Origin: Clostridiales bacterium
GTDB taxonomy: Bacteria > Bacillota > Clostridia > Christensenellales > UBA1242
Assembly (NCBI GenBank): GCA_015055665.1
Contig: SVHX01000001.1
Coordinates: 135,365 to 199,364, forward strand
Length of the DNA: 64,000 nucleotides
Direction: 5' to 3'
Part shown: in pieces, positions 2,681 to 62,322 of the stretch
Numbering within the stretch: the stretch's first letter is position 1
Layout: each line of letters opens with the position of its first letter
The notes under the pieces: model-generated
What the model was told of the DNA's origin: nothing
The model's database searches: none
The model's input: only the letters and a program-made list of their open reading frames with translations
Made by a program: the position numbers and the translations under genes

Positions 2681-3214
2681 CTATACCTCCTCTATTGTTA
2701 AATTATGGTTAGTGTATACACACATATCACCAGCAATCTTCATAGCTTTCTTAACAATTTCCATAGCATCAAGATCAGTATTTTCCATTAACGCACGTGC
2801 AGCTGCCATTGCATATAGACTACCACTACCAATCGAGCAAACGTTACTTTCTGGCTCAATTACTTCGCCAGTACCAGATATAATTAACATCTGAGATTTG
2901 TCTGCGACAATCATCTGAGCATCAAGTCTTCTTGGATATTTGTCATCACGGAATCCAAGAGCAAGCTCTACCGCACTTCTTAGCAAGTTACCGCTAAACT
3001 TCTGCAGTAACTCTTCAAATCTTGCCTCTAGAGCAAAAGCGTCAGCCACAGAGCCAGCGAATCCAATAACAACTTTGTCGTTGTATACACGCCTAACCTT
3101 CTTAGAATTACTCTTCATTATAACGTGCTCACCAAGTGTTGCCTGTCCATCTCCCGCTATAATAATTTTACCATCTTTCTTAACACCTATAATAGTAGTT
3201 CCTCTTAGTTCCAT
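2681..3214 (-). CDS. hslV: ATP-dependent protease subunit HslV
   Basis: 177 aa. The sequence after Met begins ...GTTIIGVKKDGKIIIAGDGQATLG with the catalytic Thr context, immediately upstream of hslU. Confidence 0.95.
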   Translation of the reverse strand: MELRGTTIIGVKKDGKIIIAGDGQATLGEHVIMKSNSKKVRRVYNDKVVIGFAGSVADAFALEARFEELLQKFSGNLLRSAVELALGFRDDKYPRRLDAQMIVADKSQMLIISGTGEVIEPESNVCSIGSGSLYAMAAARALMENTDLDAMEIVKKAMKIAGDMCVYTNHNLTIEEV

Positions 3215-3217
3215 TGT

Positions 3218-4525
3218 TTATAGTTTCTCCTTTATAATCAATTCATTAATCAAAGATAATGATTTGTCAGCAAGCAATTTGTTTTTTGCCTTCTTATCCT
3301 TCATCCTTATCTCTTCGTAATTAATTAGTCCCATATTAGCACTCATTGGCTCAAAGTCGCCAACTTTGTTAGCAATATATTTACATAATGCACCAATAAT
3401 AGTGTGCTTGTCAAACAAAATCGGCTCAGCACCGCTAAGATGCCTATACATATTAAGTCCAGCCACAAGTCCGGACGAGATACTCTCGATGTACCCCTCA
3501 ACTCCGCTTATTTGACCAGCAAAGAATATGTTAGGATAATTAATCATCTGATAAGTTTCTTTTAAAACTCCTGGCGACTTAATGTATGTGTTCTTGTGCA
3601 TTGTTCCTAATCTTAAGAACTCTGCATCCTCTAACCCCGGAATCATACGAAATATTCGTTTCTGCTCCGGATAAATTAGATTAGTCTGGAATCCAACAAT
3701 ATTGTAATACTCGTTGCCAAAAGTTTCTTTGCGTAATTGTACTACAGCATATGGAGTCTGATTAGTTCTTGGATCTCTAAGACCTACTGGCTTAAGAGGG
3801 CCAAATCTAATACTATCCTCACCTCGTGATGCAAGAATTTCAATGGGCATACAACCTTCGTAAACTTTGTGTTTCTCGAAATCCTTTAATACAACAGTTT
3901 CGCCATTAATAAGTTCGTTATAGAATCTTAGATACTGCTCTTTGGTAAAAGGACAATTAATATAATCACCATCACCCTTATCGTATCTATCCTTAATGTA
4001 CGCGATATCGAAATTAATGCTATCATATGATACAATTGGAGCAATTGCATCAAAGAAATACAATTCCTCCGAGCCTACAAGCTTCATAATTTGAGTAGAA
4101 AGTGCATCCGAGGTAAGAGGGCCCGATGCAATTATTGTTGGAATATTAGTATCAATATCGCATACCTCTTGCCTAATAATTTCTATATTAGGCATATTGG
4201 ATAATATCTCAGTCACCCTTGCACTAAACTTCTCTCTATCTACCGATAGACTAGCTCCAGCTGGCACACGAGTTTCGTCAGCAACCTTAATAAGTAGACT
4301 ATCAAGTTGTCTTAACTCTTCCTTTAGTAATCCACCAGCAGTAGTTATTTCGTTACTTTTGAGCGAATTCGAGCAGACAAGCTCTGCTAGATTCTCGTTA
4401 TGATGGGCAGGTGTAAACTTAGGCTTCATATCATATAGCTTAACTTTCACACCACGCTTTGCAAGCTGATACGCACACTCACAACCAGCAAGACCACCAC
4501 CAATAATTTTAACTATTTTCTCCAT
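3218..4525 (-). CDS. trmFO: methylenetetrahydrofolate--tRNA-(uracil-5)-methyltransferase TrmFO
   Basis: FAD motif IIGGGLAGCECAYQLA and full-length similarity to Gid/TrmFO. The track ORF begins at TTG 4531; ATG 4525 is the more likely start. Overlaps the topA stop. Confidence 0.92.
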   Translation of the reverse strand: MEKIVKIIGGGLAGCECAYQLAKRGVKVKLYDMKPKFTPAHHNENLAELVCSNSLKSNEITTAGGLLKEELRQLDSLLIKVADETRVPAGASLSVDREKFSARVTEILSNMPNIEIIRQEVCDIDTNIPTIIASGPLTSDALSTQIMKLVGSEELYFFDAIAPIVSYDSINFDIAYIKDRYDKGDGDYINCPFTKEQYLRFYNELINGETVVLKDFEKHKVYEGCMPIEILASRGEDSIRFGPLKPVGLRDPRTNQTPYAVVQLRKETFGNEYYNIVGFQTNLIYPEQKRIFRMIPGLEDAEFLRLGTMHKNTYIKSPGVLKETYQMINYPNIFFAGQISGVEGYIESISSGLVAGLNMYRHLSGAEPILFDKHTIIGALCKYIANKVGDFEPMSANMGLINYEEIRMKDKKAKNKLLADKSLSLINELIIKEKL

Positions 4526-9521: not shown

Positions 9522-11288
9522 TTAACCAATTACCTTACTAGTAACTTCTTGCATAATATTTTTAATAAATTCATCTAAAGCTATAGATCCTTGATCGCCT
9601 ACAAATCTCTTACGAACAGCAACACTTCCACTAGCTGCCTCGTTATCTCCTACAATAACCGAATAAGGAACTTTCTCTAGCTGAGCATCTCTTATTTTCT
9701 TACCAATCTTCTCGTTACGATCATCAAGTTCTACACGTAGACCATAAGACTCTAACTTTTCTTTTACGGATCTTGCATATTCAAGATGAGCATCAGCAAT
9801 ATTAAGAATCTTAACCTGAGTAGGTGCAAGCCATGTTGGGAACGCTCCAGCATACTTCTCAATTAAATAAGCAAGTGTACGCTCATAACAACCAATACTT
9901 GTTCTATGTATAATATATGGAGTCTTCTTAGCACCATCTTTGTCGGTATATTCCATACCAAATTTCTCAGCAAGCAATTGATCTATTTGGATTGTAATTA
10001 GAGTATCTTCCTTACCCCAGACATTTCTAATCTGAATATCTAGTTTAGGTCCATAGAAAGCAGCCTCTCCAATACCAATTGTGTATGGAATTTCGAGCTT
10101 ATCTAGTATCTTACCCATAATATCTTGAGCTTCTGCCCACTGCTCATCAGTACCAATGTACTTATCTCTGTTGTTAGGATCCCACTGCGAGAATCTATAA
10201 GACGCATCCTCATACAACCCAAGAGTCTTAAGCATATAAATTGCAAGCTCAAGACAATTCTTAAATTCGTCCTCAAGCTGTTCAGGAGTACACATTAAGT
10301 GTCCTTCGGATATTGTAAACTGTCTAACCCTTATAAGACCATGCATCTCACCGCTAGCTTCGTTACGGAAGAGTGTTGATGTTTCGTTATATCTTAAAGG
10401 TAAATCCTTATAAGAACGAGCTTCGTTAAGATATGCCTGATACTGGAACGGACAAGTCATAGGACGAAGAGCAAATACTTCCTTATCCTTGGCTTCATCA
10501 CCAAGAACAAACATACCGTCCTTATAGTGATCCCAGTGACCACTAATCTTATAAAGATCACTTTTTGCCATAAATGGAGTTTTGGTTAATAACCAGCCCC
10601 TCTTTTGCTCCTCATCCTCAACAAATCTTTGCAAAAGCTGAATAATTCTAGCACCCTTAGGAAGAAGAATAGGCAATCCTTGACCAATCGAATCAACAGT
10701 AGTAAAGATTCCTAGCTCACGACCAAGCTTGTTGTGATCACGCTTCATAGCCTCTTCCATTGCATTAATATACTTTTTTAGCTCGCTTTTATCAAGAAAA
10801 CCATAAACATATACCCTTTGCAACATTTTATTCTTCTCGCTTCCTCTCCAGTAAGCACCACTAACTCTATTAATCTTGTATGCAAAACCTCTCAAGAACT
10901 TAGTGTTCTCCACGTGAGGGCCCCTACATAGATCTACAAAGTCATCACCCAAATAATATATAGAGATAGTTTCATCTTGAGGCAATTCATTAATCAACTC
11001 AATCTTGTATGGCTCCGACTTAAACATACTAAGAGCCTCTTCTTTAGATATCTCCTTACGAACAAAGTCTTCATTTCTCTCAATGATTTCCTTCATCTTA
11101 TTCTCAATTGCGTCAAAGTCTTCATTAGTTATAGACCTGTCCACATCAAAATCATAATAGAATCCATTATCAATAGCTGGACCAATAGCAAGTTTCACAC
11201 TAGCCCCAAACAATTCCTTAATTGCCTTAGCAAGTACATGACTCATACTATGACGATACATCATTTGCTTTTCATTAATTTCACTCAT
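9522..11288 (-). CDS. thrS: threonine--tRNA ligase (short form without the N-terminal TGS domain)
   Basis: 588 aa from ATG 11288 (AAAGGAG upstream). It begins directly with the editing-domain motif HSMSHVLAKAI...GFYYDFD, then a class-II catalytic core and an anticodon-binding domain. Preceded by a T-box. Confidence 0.95.
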   Translation of the reverse strand: MSEINEKQMMYRHSMSHVLAKAIKELFGASVKLAIGPAIDNGFYYDFDVDRSITNEDFDAIENKMKEIIERNEDFVRKEISKEEALSMFKSEPYKIELINELPQDETISIYYLGDDFVDLCRGPHVENTKFLRGFAYKINRVSGAYWRGSEKNKMLQRVYVYGFLDKSELKKYINAMEEAMKRDHNKLGRELGIFTTVDSIGQGLPILLPKGARIIQLLQRFVEDEEQKRGWLLTKTPFMAKSDLYKISGHWDHYKDGMFVLGDEAKDKEVFALRPMTCPFQYQAYLNEARSYKDLPLRYNETSTLFRNEASGEMHGLIRVRQFTISEGHLMCTPEQLEDEFKNCLELAIYMLKTLGLYEDASYRFSQWDPNNRDKYIGTDEQWAEAQDIMGKILDKLEIPYTIGIGEAAFYGPKLDIQIRNVWGKEDTLITIQIDQLLAEKFGMEYTDKDGAKKTPYIIHRTSIGCYERTLAYLIEKYAGAFPTWLAPTQVKILNIADAHLEYARSVKEKLESYGLRVELDDRNEKIGKKIRDAQLEKVPYSVIVGDNEAASGSVAVRKRFVGDQGSIALDEFIKNIMQEVTSKVIG

Positions 11289-18964: not shown

Positions 18965-19039
18965 GGCACCATAGCCAAGTGGTAAGGCCCGGGTCTGCAA
19001 AACCCTCATGCCTCAGTTCGAATCTGAGTGGTGCCTCCA
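18965..19039 (+). tRNA. tRNA-Cys (GCA), CCA encoded
   Basis: Hand-folded. Acceptor GGCACCA/TGGTGCC, anticodon loop CTGCAAA, T-arm CTCAG-TTCGAAT-CTGAG, 3' TCCA. Confidence 0.9.
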
Positions 19040-19046
19040 ATATAAA

Positions 19047-19076
19047 TAGTAGCCTATCCTGTAAGATAGGCTACTA
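19047..19076 (+). other. 12-bp perfect hairpin between tRNA-Cys and tRNA-Leu (no T-run)
   Basis: TAGTAGCCTATC-ctgtaa-GATAGGCTACTA. Confidence 0.6.
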
Positions 19077-19084
19077 ATATATTC

Positions 19085-19171
19085 GCTGGTGTGGCGAAAT
19101 CGGCAGACGCACAGGACTTAAAATCCTGCGGAGTAACATCCGTACCAGTTCAAGTCTGGTCACCAGCACCA
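19085..19171 (+). tRNA. tRNA-Leu (TAA), long variable arm, CCA encoded
   Basis: Acceptor GCTGGTG/CACCAGC, anticodon stem CAGGA/TCCTG with loop CTTAAAA, T-loop TTCAAGT, 87 nt. Confidence 0.9.
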
Positions 19172-19517
19172 CATAAAGCAAACGTTCTGTTTGCTTTTTT
19201 GTTGCTTTGTGCATAGACTTTATGTACTTACGTACATTGCGAGCTTTGCTCGCGAACTGGTACTCGTACCTGTATTGGCTTTCAGCCAAACTTGCAATTT
19301 ATTCCCAGAATCATTGCTGCGCCATGTCTGGTCACCAGCACCACATAAAGCAAACGTTCTGTTTGCTTTTTTTGTTGCTTTGTGCATAGACTTTATGTAC
19401 TTACGTACATTGCGAGCTTTGCTCGCGAACTGGTACTCGTACCTGTATTGGCTTTCAGCCAAACTTGCAATTTATTCCCAGAATTATTGCTGCGCCAAGT
19501 CTGGTCACCAGCAGCCA
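19154..19517 (+). repeat. tandem 172/173-bp repeat (2 full units plus a terminal 19-nt copy), each unit bounded by the last 18 nt of tRNA-Leu
   Basis: GTCTGGTCACCAGCACCA occurs at 19154, at 19326, and with one extra G at 19499. The sequence between copies is near identical. Each unit has a terminator (AAGCAAAC-GTTCT-GTTTGCTT plus T6/T7) followed by 4-5 short perfect hairpins. Confidence 0.9.
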
Positions 19518-19625: not shown

Positions 19626-20168
19626 ATGCAAGACAACAGAAAGAAATATATAGATTTTTTGGCAAAACGCAAGAAGAATTGTTACCAATTTATTACAGAT
19701 ACATTACTTAATGAGGAATCTCAAGACAACCTTAGTGTTCAATATAAAAACTGGAACACAGATGTTAGCAGCGCATCAATTCATTTCGATTTCAAAGTAT
19801 TCAATACATCTAAGCATTTTGGCAGAATAGCTAATGGATTTGCAATTCTTAATGCTTTTAGTTGTGATATTGGGATGACATCTTATGACAAGATTGAATC
19901 ATTTACAGAACATATCCGCAAAGAATATGGACAATTTATATATAATTTAATCAAAGAGGCAGAATCACAAGGAGCTACAACTCTAAGTAGCAAACAATAT
20001 TTAGAGGACTATAACGATTTCCACCGCTTTGTTCGTGACTCGAAAGTCACCTCAGCTCAGAAAGAGTTCAAAGAAAAATACGAAAAAATTGCTAAAGATT
20101 ATTCAGATATTAAATTATCTGCAGATGCTCCTGCTGACGAAAACAACGCCAGAGAATCTACTTTATAG
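19626..20168 (+). CDS. hypothetical protein, orphan paralog 1
   Basis: 180 aa with an AGGGG RBS. Clearly paralogous to the next gene: YIDFLAKRKKNCYQFITDTLL vs YIRFLDDNKLKCKKFIAETIL, and EYGQFIYNLIKEAESQGATTLSSKQY vs EFGTFVYNLIKSDQDKGETELNSEQY. I recognise no family. Confidence 0.7.
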   Translation: MQDNRKKYIDFLAKRKKNCYQFITDTLLNEESQDNLSVQYKNWNTDVSSASIHFDFKVFNTSKHFGRIANGFAILNAFSCDIGMTSYDKIESFTEHIRKEYGQFIYNLIKEAESQGATTLSSKQYLEDYNDFHRFVRDSKVTSAQKEFKEKYEKIAKDYSDIKLSADAPADENNARESTL

Positions 20169-20276: not shown

Positions 20277-20822
20277 ATGGAACATAGTAAGGATTATGAG
20301 CAATACATTAGATTTTTGGATGACAATAAACTTAAATGCAAGAAATTTATAGCAGAAACAATATTAGAAAACAGACCGAATAATAATCGCAAGGTGTTAT
20401 TTAGCAATTGGTCTACTAACCACAACTTAACAGACATTGCATTTGAATTTAAGATTGTTGACAATAATTACCATAGGATATCGTGTGGTTTTGGCTGTTT
20501 TACCCCAGTAGAACTTCAATTAATTTTTAGAGATGGTGATGGACCACTAACAAAGAAAGTTTATTGCTACGATAAAGAATTTGGCACTTTTGTGTACAAC
20601 CTTATTAAAAGTGATCAAGACAAGGGAGAAACAGAGCTAAATAGCGAACAATACAGAAGATTGTACAACAAAATTCAAGACGAATATTATATTAAATTAG
20701 CAGAAGAAGCAAGACAAGATTTTGAGAAAAAACTACAAGGAATTTCTTTGCGTCGTGCAAATGCTTATTTATTCCCTGATGGTCTAGAATCTCCATTTGG
20801 TCCAGAATTAAGTGATAATTGA
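20277..20822 (+). CDS. hypothetical protein, orphan paralog 2
   Basis: 181 aa with a strong RBS. Paralog of 19626-20168. Confidence 0.7.
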   Translation: MEHSKDYEQYIRFLDDNKLKCKKFIAETILENRPNNNRKVLFSNWSTNHNLTDIAFEFKIVDNNYHRISCGFGCFTPVELQLIFRDGDGPLTKKVYCYDKEFGTFVYNLIKSDQDKGETELNSEQYRRLYNKIQDEYYIKLAEEARQDFEKKLQGISLRRANAYLFPDGLESPFGPELSDN

Positions 20823-20924: not shown

Positions 20925-21677
20925 TCATATCCCCTTCTCACTCTCAACAAGCTCCTCTTCTTGTTCAAAAGAGAGTTTGCCAAGTTCATTACATCTATCA
21001 CATAGCTGTTGAGATATTTCTTCCTTGGTGAGCCCCTTAGAAAATAATTCAGAAAGCATAATAGGTTTATCTATAACATAAGTTCTAGTTGACTTCTGAT
21101 AATAAGCCACATAGATTGGAACATCCATATCCTTCTTCTGACACATATTACAAAGCAATGTAAAACCAGCATGAAAGCCCTCTAACTCATCAAGATAACC
21201 CTTGGACGAATCTTCTGGGAATATTATAATATTCTGATTATCTTCAAGTGCTGCAAGGCTTTCGTTAAGAGTAGTCCTTAATTTGCCTCCACGATATACA
21301 GGAATAAGTCTTAACCCTCTATAGAATATAAATGTTAGAGGAGTAGCAAGAAGACAGAATAATCTAGCTGCGAATAAATTCCAATGTTTCTTCTCATGAT
21401 AATATACTCTTGTCTGATATTTATATAGAGTAAATATATTAGAATTCATCTCATACGCACCCCAGAACCTTATGTTTTTGCAAGGACCGTATAACTCAAA
21501 CGCTAGAGGAGCAGATGTTCCTACATGATTACTAAGAATTATTCCTCTATCTCCAAGCTCCTCACCTAGGAAAACAAACTTACTCTTCTTAATAAATATC
21601 CGCATAATCTTTTTTAGACCCCTAAACCACGCCTTACGATAATGCTTAGGCTTATCTGTTCTTACATTTTTTGCCAT
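20925..21677 (-). CDS. lysophospholipid (PlsC-type) acyltransferase family protein
   Basis: About 250 aa from ATG 21677 (GAGGTG RBS; the track ORF starts at 21704). Has an NHVGTSAP-type HX4D-like region and FPEDSSKGY (FPEG-like box) typical of glycerolipid acyltransferases. Confidence 0.6.
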   Translation of the reverse strand: MAKNVRTDKPKHYRKAWFRGLKKIMRIFIKKSKFVFLGEELGDRGIILSNHVGTSAPLAFELYGPCKNIRFWGAYEMNSNIFTLYKYQTRVYYHEKKHWNLFAARLFCLLATPLTFIFYRGLRLIPVYRGGKLRTTLNESLAALEDNQNIIIFPEDSSKGYLDELEGFHAGFTLLCNMCQKKDMDVPIYVAYYQKSTRTYVIDKPIMLSELFSKGLTKEEISQQLCDRCNELGKLSFEQEEELVESEKGI

Positions 21678-21946
21678 AACCACAACACCTCGAATTAAAT
21701 ACACTAAATTACTAACAACATATATAGAATTACTATATACTTTATTGTAACATAGTTCGATAAAAAATCAAATAAAAGTACACTAAATTATATGATTGCA
21801 ATTAAGAATTAATAATATCAATGTAAAAATTGATGCTAGACAAACAAAGATATCTTTTTGAATAATTAAATCAACCTATATACATGACAGCCTTACAAAG
21901 CACATCAACCTAACAGTCAAACGCAAAATATAAATTTTAATTTAAT

Positions 21947-22258
21947 ATCACGCCAAGTGATGCGAACGCCCTCGCGCTTCGCACGAGTACACGCGTCGCG
22001 AGTTCCTATGTGATAACATAGACATTACGTAGTAATGGGAATCTCGTCTGCAAGCCACAAAAAAAAGCACCATACGGTGCTTAATTATTGGAGCGGAAAA
22101 CAGATTCGGTGCCGAGCATCACACCAAGTGATGCGAACGCCCTCGTGCCCCGCACGAGTACACGCGTCGCGAGTTCCTATGTGATAACATAGACATTACA
22201 TAGTAATGGGAATCTCGTCTGCAAGCTACAAAAAAAGCACCATACGGTGCTTAATTAT
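21947..22258 (-). repeat. tandem 170/171-bp repeat (2 units) directly downstream of tRNA-Gly; unit 1 ends with a degenerate copy of the tRNA-Gly 3' end
   Basis: TGGAGCGGAA (complement of the tRNA 3' end) occurs at 22259 and again at 22089, extended by a degenerate T-arm copy. Each unit, read on the minus strand, has terminator AAGCACC-GTAT-GGTGCTT plus T7/T8 and then a hairpin chain. I see about 6 substitutions and 1 indel between the units. Confidence 0.9.
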
Positions 22259-22333
22259 TGGAGCGGAAGACGAGATTCGAACTCGCGACATTCGCCTTGG
22301 CAAGGCGACGCTCTACCACTGAGCCACTCCCGC
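22259..22333 (-). tRNA. tRNA-Gly (GCC), CCA encoded
   Basis: Minus strand GCGGGAG..CTTGCCAAG..GCGAGTTCGAATCTCGT CTTCCGC T CCA. The cloverleaf folds by hand. Confidence 0.9.
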
Positions 22334-22398
22334 AAATTTAGGCTTAATAAGCCTCGTGTTATAGGAACTATTAAATCAACATGGTTAATTTAATAAAA

Positions 22399-22474
22399 TG
22401 GTGGGAGTTATAGGGCTCGAACCTATGACCTCCTGCTTGTAAGGCAGATGCTCTCCCAGCTGAGCTAAACTCCC
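22399..22474 (-). tRNA. tRNA-Val (TAC), CCA encoded
   Basis: Minus strand GGGAGTT TA GCTC AGCTGGGA GAGC .. CTTACAA .. ATAGG TTCGAGC CCTAT AACTCCC A CCA. Confidence 0.9.
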
Positions 22475-23046: not shown

Positions 23047-23706
23047 TTATCTTCCGTTATATTTATCAGCTATACTCTTAGCATATAGAGATGTATATAA
23101 CCAATGACATACACACCAAACTAGTAACGCCACTAGATAAATCCAGTATGTGTCCCAGAATATCTCGTTTAATACCGAAATAATCAATAATACAAATGCA
23201 ACAAATATCAACGATCTACCAGCAATAATGTGAGTCTGTCGCCAAACAATAGAGTTAGACTTTACCCATCTATATCCAAATATAGAGAAATCATCTTTGT
23301 CCTTGTTAATAGTGTAATACCCCTCTGCAATAAAGAATAGACCAAAAGGAAACAATATCATAATTGCCCAAGGCCAATCAAGAGATACGCCTAATGCATA
23401 GTTGTTGTATTGTAGTAACATTAGTACCCACATTACATATGTAGTAAATGCAAGTGCTACCCAAGAGATAAGATATCTATATTTATGCTCCTTTGGATTA
23501 TATACATCCAATAGATATATAACTAACATACAGATAACTTGCGTAATAGGAATAATCAAATTATACCATCTTGAAATGTATGTAGACGCATACAAATTAC
23601 CTGTTAAGCCAAATATTACATTGTCTGGTAAAAAGAACATAAAAACAATAGCACAAATCAAATTAATAACACTATAAATAAATATTAATCTAGAAGTTTT
23701 AGTCAT
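23047..23706 (-). CDS. SdpI/YhfL-family multi-pass membrane protein
   Basis: 219 aa with about 6 hydrophobic segments. GYRWVKSNSIVWRQTHIIAGR resembles the SdpI-family GxR..W...W..THR..G motif. Confidence 0.55.
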   Translation of the reverse strand: MTKTSRLIFIYSVINLICAIVFMFFLPDNVIFGLTGNLYASTYISRWYNLIIPITQVICMLVIYLLDVYNPKEHKYRYLISWVALAFTTYVMWVLMLLQYNNYALGVSLDWPWAIMILFPFGLFFIAEGYYTINKDKDDFSIFGYRWVKSNSIVWRQTHIIAGRSLIFVAFVLLIISVLNEIFWDTYWIYLVALLVWCVCHWLYTSLYAKSIADKYNGR

Positions 23707-61970: not shown

Positions 61971-61987
61971 TTTTAATAAAATACATT

Positions 61988-62322
61988 AGAATACACATAA
62001 GCCGAGTTCTGTTATAAATGATTATCTATCTAGCACTGTTGTCACCAACAATTTCAAGCGGTGTAAACAAGAAGCCTGCGAGTAACAGTTAAGCCTCTTA
62101 ACCTTGCATCGGATGGGGTTTACACAATCACATAGTCACCCATGTAATTAATAGTATCTTACACTATTATTCCACCTATCGCATTAGAATTAACCAATGC
62201 TGTTTCTTTTCTGTTGCACTTTCCTTAGGGTCGCCCCCAGTAGCCGTTAACTACCATCCTACTCTATGATGCTCGGACTTTCCTCACGCGACAATGTCGC
62301 CCGCAATCATTTGTATATCTAA
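61988..62322 (-). ncRNA. rnpB: RNase P RNA
   Basis: The minus strand contains GAGGAAAGTCCGAGC (P4 5' strand), AGGAAAGTGCAACAGAAA (CR-II) and ACAGAACTCGGCTTAT (P4 3' strand). P2 pairing is AAATGATT/AATCATTT. The ends are approximate, within about 10 nt. Confidence 0.88.

Follow-up and report, generated by a model that had tools for sequence, protein, structure and literature searches.

What is the element that is formed by two nearly identical repeat units directly behind the tRNA-Gly(GCC) gene of an uncultured Clostridiales bacterium? The DNA analyzed, which is called the window in this text, is a stretch of 64,000 nt from contig SVHX01000001.1 (assembly GCA_015055665.1, positions 135,365 to 199,364 of the forward strand), and all coordinates without a contig name refer to it. 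The array is detected by Tandem Repeats Finder at 21947-22279 with a period of 171, 1.9 copies and 94% matches. It is very likely that this array is an element of the tRNA-linked repeat (TLR) type, that is, a gut-Clostridia version of a class that is described in E. coli (Stenum et al., PMC8144298, summarising Egan & Landy 1978 and Rudd 1999). This assignment is based on direct observation of the construction of the units, their matching to the cognate tRNA, the conservation of their structure, the variation of their copy number, the decay of the distal copies and the equivalence of their design to that of the E. coli TLRs. Contigs and loci used for comparison are numbered with the prefix L.

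Architecture of the repeat units downstream of tRNA-Gly

The tRNA-Gly(GCC) gene is located at 22259-22333 of the minus strand (identified by ARAGORN; Rfam tRNA score, 70.8 bits) and is the final gene of a tRNA-Val/tRNA-Gly operon, in which tRNA-Val occupies 22399-22474 of the same strand (ARAGORN). Immediately 3' of tRNA-Gly, two tandem copies that are 94% alike are present on the minus strand. Unit 1 (22089-22258) is complete and consists of 170 nt, starting at the first base after the CCA of tRNA-Gly, and unit 2 (21947-22088) is truncated to 142 nt. The two copies differ by 6 substitutions and one indel in a T run. A preliminary description of this locus, made from the sequence alone, had reported two units of ~170 bp with these boundaries and about this number of differences, and both the array and the tRNA gene found by the programs agree with it. 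Each unit contains, in the direction of tRNA-Gly, a trailer with a terminator, the antisense segment A', hairpins H1 and H2, the antisense segment M1, hairpin H3, the sequence UGUA, hairpin H4, GGGCGTTCGC, hairpin H5, GCTCGGCACC and the sense segment A. The sense and antisense copies within the units are derived from the 3' third of tRNA-Gly.

The head of unit 1 is the intrinsic terminator of the tRNA operon (AAGCACC-GTAT-GGTGCTT followed by T7, 22230-22252), and the head of unit 2 is a second copy of this terminator (AAGCACC-GTAT-GGTGCTT followed by T8, 22059-22082). The terminator scan lists both of them, with sites at 22252-22235 and 22082-22065 respectively, as the preliminary description had stated. 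Segment A' (AGACGAGATTC, 22210-22220) consists of 11 nt that are 100% complementary to 22268-22278, so that it is a perfect antisense copy of nucleotides 56-66 of tRNA-Gly, which comprise the 3' part of the T loop, the 3' strand of the T stem and the first acceptor nucleotide. Segment M1 (GAACTCGCGAC, 22166-22176) likewise consists of 11 nt that are 100% complementary to 22279-22289, and is a perfect antisense copy of nucleotides 45-55, which comprise the end of the variable region, the 5' strand of the T stem and the TTC of the T loop. Together, A' and M1 represent the exact antisense of nucleotides 45-66, namely the complete T arm plus the first nucleotide of the acceptor. H1 (CATTAC-TAT-GTAATG) and H2 (CTATGT-TATC-ACATAG), which lie at 22177-22208, interrupt this antisense T arm in the T loop, between standard positions 56 and 57. 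The matches of A' and M1 appear in a listing of matches to the tRNA and were found independently by a repeat-finding program.

Downstream of M1, H3 (CGC-GAC-GCG), the conserved UGUA (22159-22162) and H4 (CTCGTGC-GGG-GCACGAG) lie at 22142-22171, and the conserved GGGCGTTCGC, H5 (GCATCAC-TTGGT-GTGATGC) and the conserved GCTCGGCACC lie at 22109-22142. The latter segment is not identical to any part of the tRNA, yet it is conserved in the related loci L010 and L015. H1, H2, H4 and H5 are the four hairpins named in the preliminary description, and all of them are present. Unit 1 is closed by segment A (CGAATCTGTTTTCCGCTCCA, 22089-22108), which repeats the 3' end of tRNA-Gly (T loop through CCA) in sense orientation and in degenerate form. 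The tRNA 3' end TTCCGCTCCA (22259-22268) is repeated at 22089-22098, as had been noticed before, and the copy is extended with a degenerate T-arm sequence to 22108. When A is compared with CGAATCTCGTCTTCCGCTCCA of the tRNA, two matching blocks of 7 and 10 nt are obtained and the copy is 1 nt shorter, so that the identity amounts to 10 contiguous nucleotides, or to 17/21 in two blocks. Unit 2 contains the same parts (A' at 22039-22049, M1 at 21995-22005), breaks off inside H5 at 21947, and has neither a 3' end copy nor a third terminator, in agreement with the earlier statement that the distal unit is not closed.

The predicted fold of the unit is a multi-hairpin body that is closed by pairing of A' with A, as the 5' and 3' strands respectively of helix P1. 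Unit 1 folds better than its shuffled sequences (z = -2.6). The observed construction is not due to chance, because two 11-nt segments with 100% complementarity to adjacent tRNA segments were found independently and because unit 1 folds better than its shuffles. Searches against Rfam, of the whole window at the gathering score and of 21850-22350 at E <= 10, detect tRNAs and RNase P only, and no ribozyme, riboswitch or RtT, and the higher-GC locus L014 gave the same result. The units contain no conserved reading frame; open reading frames of 20-49 amino acids are present on both strands, and the hairpins turn over between lineages (conservation across lineages was judged by eye). The perfect antisense copy of the T arm in each unit and the membership of a class already described in E. 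coli go beyond the preliminary description.

Comparison with the tRNA-linked repeats of E. coli

E. coli K-12 contains 22 TLR copies at 10 loci, with 1-5 copies per locus, and the hallmark of the class is a 3' end of 18-19 bp that is identical to that of the upstream tRNA or rRNA gene (PMC8144298). A function once claimed for rtT has been retracted, and the TLRs linked to tRNA have no known function (PMC8144298). The published definition of TLRs does not include an internal antisense T arm; we derive this criterion from the E. coli units and the Rfam consensus. Such an arm, which is able to pair with the 3' copy, is present in the window and in the tyrT, serX and proK units of E. coli.

The closest counterparts are the TLRs of serX (rsX1-4) and proK (rpK). 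The serX locus contains three units of 181 nt and a truncated fourth one, each headed by an intrinsic terminator. The order within the serX unit is terminator, GGGGGGAT-GA-GAAGCCCC (antisense T arm), GGGGTTCGA (sense), hairpins and AATCCCCCCCTCACCGCCA, which matches the window array point for point. The proK locus contains one unit of 168 nt and a truncated second one, and its terminator is duplicated. As in the window, these units directly follow the last tRNA of the operon, begin with the terminator, carry the antisense T arm, the hairpins and a CCA-bearing 3' copy, and are followed by the terminator again; they are arranged in tandem and the last copy is truncated. In contrast, the antisense T arm of the E. 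coli units is contiguous (…GGAU-GA-GAAC…), whereas that of the window is split by two hairpins. In E. coli, the 3' copy matches the tRNA exactly along 18-19 nt, whereas in the window it is degenerate behind tRNA-Gly (7 + 10 nt) and exact over 18 nt behind tRNA-Leu. The core sequences that are not derived from tRNA are unrelated, and the hosts belong to Clostridia and Enterobacteria respectively.

The tyrT-tyrV locus of E. coli K-12 contains four units of 178 nt, of which three follow tyrV and one lies between tyrT and tyrV. All are closed by an exact 19-nt tRNA-Tyr end, and rttR is annotated at this locus as a 171-nt small RNA. The title of a paper from 1978 reportedly speaks of 3.14 copies of a 178-bp repeat at the tyrT locus of E. 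coli. In the consensus of the corresponding Rfam family (RtT, RF00391), GgGaaGGAU (antisense) pairs with AUCCuuCcC (sense) and …CCACCACCA is left free. The Clostridial unit resembles RtT in that a unit of ~170-180 nt behind a tRNA is closed by the tRNA 3' end, is predicted to form an antisense:sense helix and varies in copy number among strains; the number of RtT matches per E. coli genome ranges from 1 to 10, paralleling the copy variation of the Clostridial units. It differs from RtT in that the tyrT units have no intrinsic terminator and overlap a small annotated open reading frame (tpr), whereas the Clostridial units have a terminator and no conserved open reading frame. The TLRs of the arg genes are shorter (~134 nt), are located between and after the argV-argY-argZ-argQ genes (L044), and have the core AACGTTGC…GCAACGGCCCGAAGGGCGA in common with RtT. 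The T-loop complement AUUCGAA is changed to AUGAGAA both in E. coli TLRs and in a higher-GC subtype of the Clostridial units.

At the gathering cut-off of RF00391 (45 bits), the E. coli units at tyrT (133-137 bits), proK (101 bits) and serX (46 bits) are detected, but the arg TLRs are not, indicating that the family is narrower than the TLR class. No match to RF00391 is found in the window at the gathering score, or at E <= 10 in 21850-22350 and in the higher-GC locus L014. Thus, the window element is a TLR by its construction and lies outside the RF00391 family. Its different core, the antisense arm split by two hairpins, the degenerate 3' copies and the lack of detection by RF00391 are new. 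As far as the literature could be searched, papers on TLRs deal with E. coli and its relatives only, and an older description elsewhere is possible.

The rrA, rrB and rrF elements are TLRs that lie between T1 and T2 of the E. coli rrnA, rrnB and rrnD operons. Like the Clostridial unit, they lie between two terminators of a stable-RNA operon and end with a copy of the 3' end of the gene before them, which here is 5S rRNA. This copy comprises 18 bp, processing of the rrn TLRs maps beside it, and they bind Hfq and CsrA via GGA motifs (PMC8144298). A predictor of CsrA binding gives a probability below 0.01 for the 19 tRNA-linked TLRs (PMC8144298). Both rttR and rrA/B/F are expressed in E. coli (PMC8144298 for the rrn TLRs).

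The tRNA-Leu array and related arrays in Clostridia

The preliminary description had connected the tRNA-Gly array with a sister array behind tRNA-Leu, and the two indeed have the same design. Tandem Repeats Finder detects the second array at 19151-19513 with a period of 173 and 2.1 copies. It consists of two units of 173 nt (19172-19517, plus strand), which begin directly after tRNA-Leu(UAA) (19085-19171, plus strand, ARAGORN), and contains terminators at 19175-19200 and 19347-19372, degenerate A' segments at 19203-19220 and 19376-19393, M1 (GAACTGGTAC) at 19254-19263 and 19427-19436, and 3' end copies at 19326-19343 and 19499-19517. In the first unit, 18 nt of the tRNA 3' end are identical, and the second copy is degenerate. 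These units fold like the tRNA-Gly units and are split alike: …AGACTT is followed by H1 and H2 and then by GAACTGGTAC, which is the reverse complement of GTACCAGTTC.

The possibility that the array represents noise of an assembly or a strain is excluded by the presence of the identical two-unit array in three independent metagenome contigs (L001, L004 and L006) and of homologues in other species. Five shorter contigs (L003, L005 and L007-L009) contain one unit, which is a chimera of the 5' part of unit 1 and the 3' part of unit 2, and reflects either a genuine recombinational deletion or a collapse of the assembly. When one genome per species was scanned for a tRNA-Gly end followed within 25-55 nt by GACGAGAT, ten Clostridia genomes were obtained, all of which are metagenome-assembled. 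A pattern scan of metagenomes yields one true locus (L020) and five chance matches.

The relatives carry 1-3 units per locus, arranged head to tail, and the distal copies are often truncated, as in the window, L016, L020, L011 and L017. L010 contains three complete tRNA-Gly units, L015 contains at least two, and L016 (the same species as L036) contains two and a fragment. L018 contains one tRNA-Gly unit (3149-3399 of this contig) with an AT-rich insertion of ~100 nt in H4, and its relative L020 contains 2.4 units of 250 nt with the H4 insertion, the third of which ends inside the insertion. A fragment of the 5' half of tRNA-Gly (GCGGGAGTGGCGGCAGAAAGCGCGGTAGAGCGTCGACTTGCCAAGGCGACC) is also present in L020, at about 4170-4220 just upstream of the intact tRNA-Gly, which shows that partial tRNA duplications occur on the 5' side as well in this lineage. 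A higher-GC group (L013, L014 and L019, and the truncated L011 and L017) carries one unit of a different subtype, in which GACGAGAT-GA-GAACGAGC forms an uninterrupted antisense T arm and the 3' copy matches the tRNA exactly along 18 nt. The contiguous identity of the tRNA-Gly 3' copy is 11 nt in L015, 12 nt in L016, 14 nt in L010, 16 nt in L020 and 18 nt in L014. In every complete case the terminator is present again after the closing copy, so that the core lies between direct repeats of ~55 nt.

Units are also present behind tRNA-Leu(UAA), with two in L010 and one each in L016 and L036, and behind tRNA-Ser(UGA), with one in L018, whereas tRNA-Lys in L013 has no unit. Each unit is matched to its own tRNA, so that, across about ten Clostridia genomes at the species level, cognate sense and antisense segments are found behind tRNA-Gly, tRNA-Leu(UAA) and tRNA-Ser(UGA). 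The tRNA-Gly and tRNA-Leu units of L016 have a lineage-specific 55-nt module in common, indicating an exchange between the loci. Relatives with 72-76% identity in FakA have a compact Val-Gly-Cys-Leu operon without units, except for L031 (FakA 76% identical). In L031, a unit of ~95 nt is present behind tRNA-Leu (9542-9653 of this contig), which consists of a degenerate sense copy from the variable arm to the 3' end and a duplicated terminator, has no clear antisense T arm, and may represent a simpler or earlier form of the element.

Constraint on the hairpins

H1 and H2 are present in all five low-GC lineages, although their sequences are unrelated. The strands of H1, H2, H4 and H5 pair to ~100% within a lineage, but only to 36-55% when strands of different lineages are combined. 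The hairpins were parsed by hand for these counts because MAFFT could not align them structurally; H2 of the L016 tRNA-Leu unit was mis-parsed in the count, and its correct reading, GATGTA-TTTCA-TACATC, is fully paired. When the tandem copies of eight arrays are compared, 34 unique substitutions are located at unpaired positions and 19 in stems, with 64.5% of the nucleotides being paired in a structure that was predicted from one of the compared copies. Thus, the substitutions avoid stems. The motifs UGUA, GGGCGTTCGC and GCTCGGCACC, which are not derived from tRNA, are conserved between lineages that are otherwise unalignable in intergenic DNA. These results indicate that the hairpins are maintained, and the earlier suggestion that they matter is supported by the pairing across species and by the substitutions between tandem copies. 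No signal that favors one of the strands is obtained.

Complementarity between the units and their cognate tRNAs

When tRNA-Gly and unit 1 are folded jointly, an energy of -114.8 kcal/mol is predicted (z = -7.7), as compared with -29.2 and -58.5 kcal/mol for the separate folds (sum, -87.7 kcal/mol). In the joint fold, A' and M1 pair with the 3' third of the tRNA and A pairs with the 5' acceptor strand. A gain of 7-30 kcal/mol is predicted for 15 of 15 pairs of tRNA and unit, and among 8 tRNAs the cognate one gives the largest gain for each of 10 units from Clostridia and E. coli. These values are thermodynamic predictions in which the tertiary structure and modification of the tRNA are ignored. 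The complementarity is partly automatic, because the units carry both sense and antisense copies of the tRNA. The joint fold also raised the idea that the unit in its full length is derived from a degenerate antisense copy of the complete tRNA; for the window unit this idea was rejected, because the similarity beyond the T arm is not significant (p = 0.43).

Proposed pathway and competing explanations

If the Clostridial units behave like TLRs of E. coli, RNA polymerase that passes the terminator of the tRNA operon would transcribe the unit. Read-through is proposed because a scan of the locus finds no promoter inside the unit. The unit RNA would fold into the multi-hairpin body with A' paired to the 3' end copy, and the nucleases that mature tRNA 3' ends would give it a defined CCA end, because it shares its 3' end and trailer with the tRNA. 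A stable by-product RNA with a length of about 140-165 nt would result, and its level would track how strongly the tRNA operon is transcribed. The arrays would be resized by replication slippage or unequal homologous recombination at the ~55-nt direct repeats (tRNA end and terminator), and the copy numbers of 1-3, the differences between strains and the decayed distal copies would be explained by such events. We favor the combination of TLR identity and this read-through RNA pathway as a whole with moderate confidence, that is, with less confidence than the TLR identity by itself.

Several observations weigh against this combined explanation. Its steps of read-through, processing and stability are assigned to the Clostridial units by analogy with other systems. 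The 3' copy of the window tRNA-Gly unit, with 10 contiguous identical nucleotides, falls short of the 18-19 nt of the E. coli units. The antisense segments fit the genuine tRNA (11/11 nt for each) better than the 3' copy of their own unit (~6 contiguous pairs), so that a simple role in a closing helix is insufficient to explain them. Close relatives lack the element, and the supplement of PMC8144298 lists an E. coli strain that lacks all 22 TLRs; any function of TLRs is thus dispensable. The stems are almost purely of Watson-Crick type, with G-U accounting for ~1% of the stem pairs. In eight arrays, changes from Watson-Crick pairs to G-U (6) are not favored over changes to A-C (8), which correspond to G-U on the other strand. 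The two strands fold equally well, with summed energies of the cores of -884 kcal/mol for the sense and -887 kcal/mol for the antisense strand. The T-A to T-G change between the two units, which the preliminary description had taken as weak evidence for pairing at the RNA level, loses its weight for these three reasons. For the same reasons, neither the strand nor the level, RNA or DNA, at which the structure is maintained is shown, and the data are compatible with the possibility that the hairpins may originate or be maintained at the DNA level.

The strongest competing explanation is that the units are functionless DNA by-products. In this case, replication would have folded back or switched template at the terminator palindrome and copied the 3' third of the tRNA, first inverted and then directly. 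The tRNA gene, which is under selection, would serve as the reference for a quasi-palindrome correction that keeps the hairpins and the perfect antisense match, slippage would generate arrays, and the distal copies would decay. The sense-antisense-sense layout is that of an inverted triplication, whose first junction coincides with the terminator hairpin and whose second junction coincides with H3, where the antisense of nucleotides 45-50 is beside a sense copy of them. This explanation also accounts for stems that are ~99% Watson-Crick and without strand asymmetry (G-U equal to A-C), for antisense segments that follow the genuine tRNA instead of the sense copy of the unit, for the truncated distal units (in E. 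coli serX and proK as well as in the five Clostridial loci), for the patchy distribution, with sister lineages that have the compact tRNA operon, for the short unit of L031 as a plain degenerate tRNA-Leu copy with a terminator, and for the existence of an E. coli strain without TLRs. However, three different tRNAs, two Clostridial lineages and E. coli have the same architecture in its details, including the split of the T loop at nucleotides 56/57, the two hairpins at this position, UGUA and the AUGAGAA variant. In addition, motifs that do not come from tRNA are conserved across lineages, substitutions between paralogous copies avoid stems, and the rtT and rrn TLRs are expressed RNAs in enterobacteria. 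We therefore regard an origin as a functionless by-product as rather unlikely.

A role as a cognate anti-tRNA RNA, which would act in cis or trans, is suggested by the predicted pairing described above. In this case, A' and M1 (22 nt) and the acceptor 3' copy would pair with the T arm and acceptor strands of the tRNA, and the RNA would sequester or mark precursors, unfolded molecules or 3' fragments of that tRNA. The 22-nt perfect bipartite antisense to nucleotides 45-66, the energy of the joint fold with unit 1, the gain in all 15 pairs and the preference of all 10 units for the cognate tRNA are consistent with it. These arguments are thermodynamic predictions, however; native tRNA folds co-transcriptionally, its tertiary contacts and modifications are outside the model, the complementarity follows automatically from the sense and antisense copies, and the antisense segments are degenerate in the tRNA-Leu, tRNA-Ser and some E. 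coli units, so that such a role is very unlikely. Partial duplications of tRNA 3' ends from the T loop to CCA are also the classical mark of integration into tRNA genes. The array could accordingly be the scar of an attachment site or a miniature of an integrative element (phage, island, or integrative and conjugative element), in which the tRNA-end copies would be left and right sites and the array would result from repeated integration. The partial direct copy downstream of an intact tRNA gene resembles such sites, and the complete or new copies are proximal and the decayed ones distal to the tRNA. Yet the terminator is included in the direct repeat, only about 115 nt lie between the repeats, no element or integrase lies between the window copies, and no integrase flanks any of the loci examined in the window and the relatives. 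The antisense T arm and the conserved hairpins would be left unexplained, and the E. coli counterparts are not attachment scars. BLAST searches of phages and plasmids with the tRNA and array match the tRNA only, and pattern scans of viral contigs for the 3' copy, A' with M1 and AUGAGAA-type sequences yield chance matches in coding DNA, none of them near a tRNA-Gly end. An origin by integration is thus extremely improbable.

Neighborhood of the arrays

The host is an uncultured low-GC member of Clostridia that is found in herbivore-gut samples. The window contains a class A RNase P RNA at 61982-62322 (minus strand, 234 bits); together with the genomic GC content of ~32% and the Firmicute-like gene order, it indicates that the host fits Clostridia and not Bacilli or Mollicutes. 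The gene order FakA, SdpI-like gene, tRNA-Val and tRNA-Gly is conserved in relatives. FakA of L018 and L020 is ~90% identical to that of the window, while the adjoining SdpI-like membrane protein (23047-23706 in the window) is only 29% identical, and judging from these identities the gene beside FakA seems either to evolve very rapidly or to have been replaced.

Three open reading frames lie between the converging tRNA operons, at 19626-20168 (plus strand), 20277-20822 (plus strand) and 20925-21677 (minus strand); two of them are paralogous and encode ~180 amino acids, and the other encodes 250 amino acids. They were considered and rejected as partners of the repeats, because they contain no Pfam domain and are missing from the related loci L010-L020. 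The tRNA-Gly array of L016 and L036 is directly followed by tRNA-Cys and tRNA-Leu, indicating that a rearrangement or insertion occurred between the two arrays of the window. In the window, tRNA-Cys is located at 18965-19039 (plus strand, ARAGORN), and the 45-nt spacer between it and tRNA-Leu is filled by a 13-bp perfect hairpin (TAGTAGCCTATCC-TGTA-…GGCTACTA, 19047-19076), which the terminator scan lists on the minus strand. This hairpin looks like a separate insertion, because the two genes are only 3 nt apart in L016.

Implications

Searches with RF00391 will overlook the Clostridial units, and short-read assemblies can collapse them. The recurrence of the design in a distant phylum and behind three cognate tRNAs argues that it is made or kept by a general mechanism and is not an accident of E. 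coli. A further-reaching interpretation, to which we assign a distinctly low probability, is that TLRs form a cross-phylum class that is rebuilt from the preceding tRNA (its 3' end in sense and its T arm in antisense orientation, and its terminator in duplicate), and that, as RNA or as single-stranded DNA, they would pair specifically with the 3' third of this tRNA and act as a cognate regulator, in quality control, or as a sponge for precursors or 3' fragments; alternatively, they would be self-templating DNA elements that retarget by copying the adjacent tRNA gene. If the self-templating alternative is true, the module that the tRNA-Gly and tRNA-Leu units of L016 have in common would be a trace of movement between loci. 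The different cores, the split and contiguous antisense arms and the presence or absence of units among close relatives provide comparative material for testing whether TLRs are functional RNAs or recurrent by-products of replication. The results reveal no new mechanism, and they turn a 45-year-old oddity of E. coli, known since 1978, into a comparative problem that extends across phyla.

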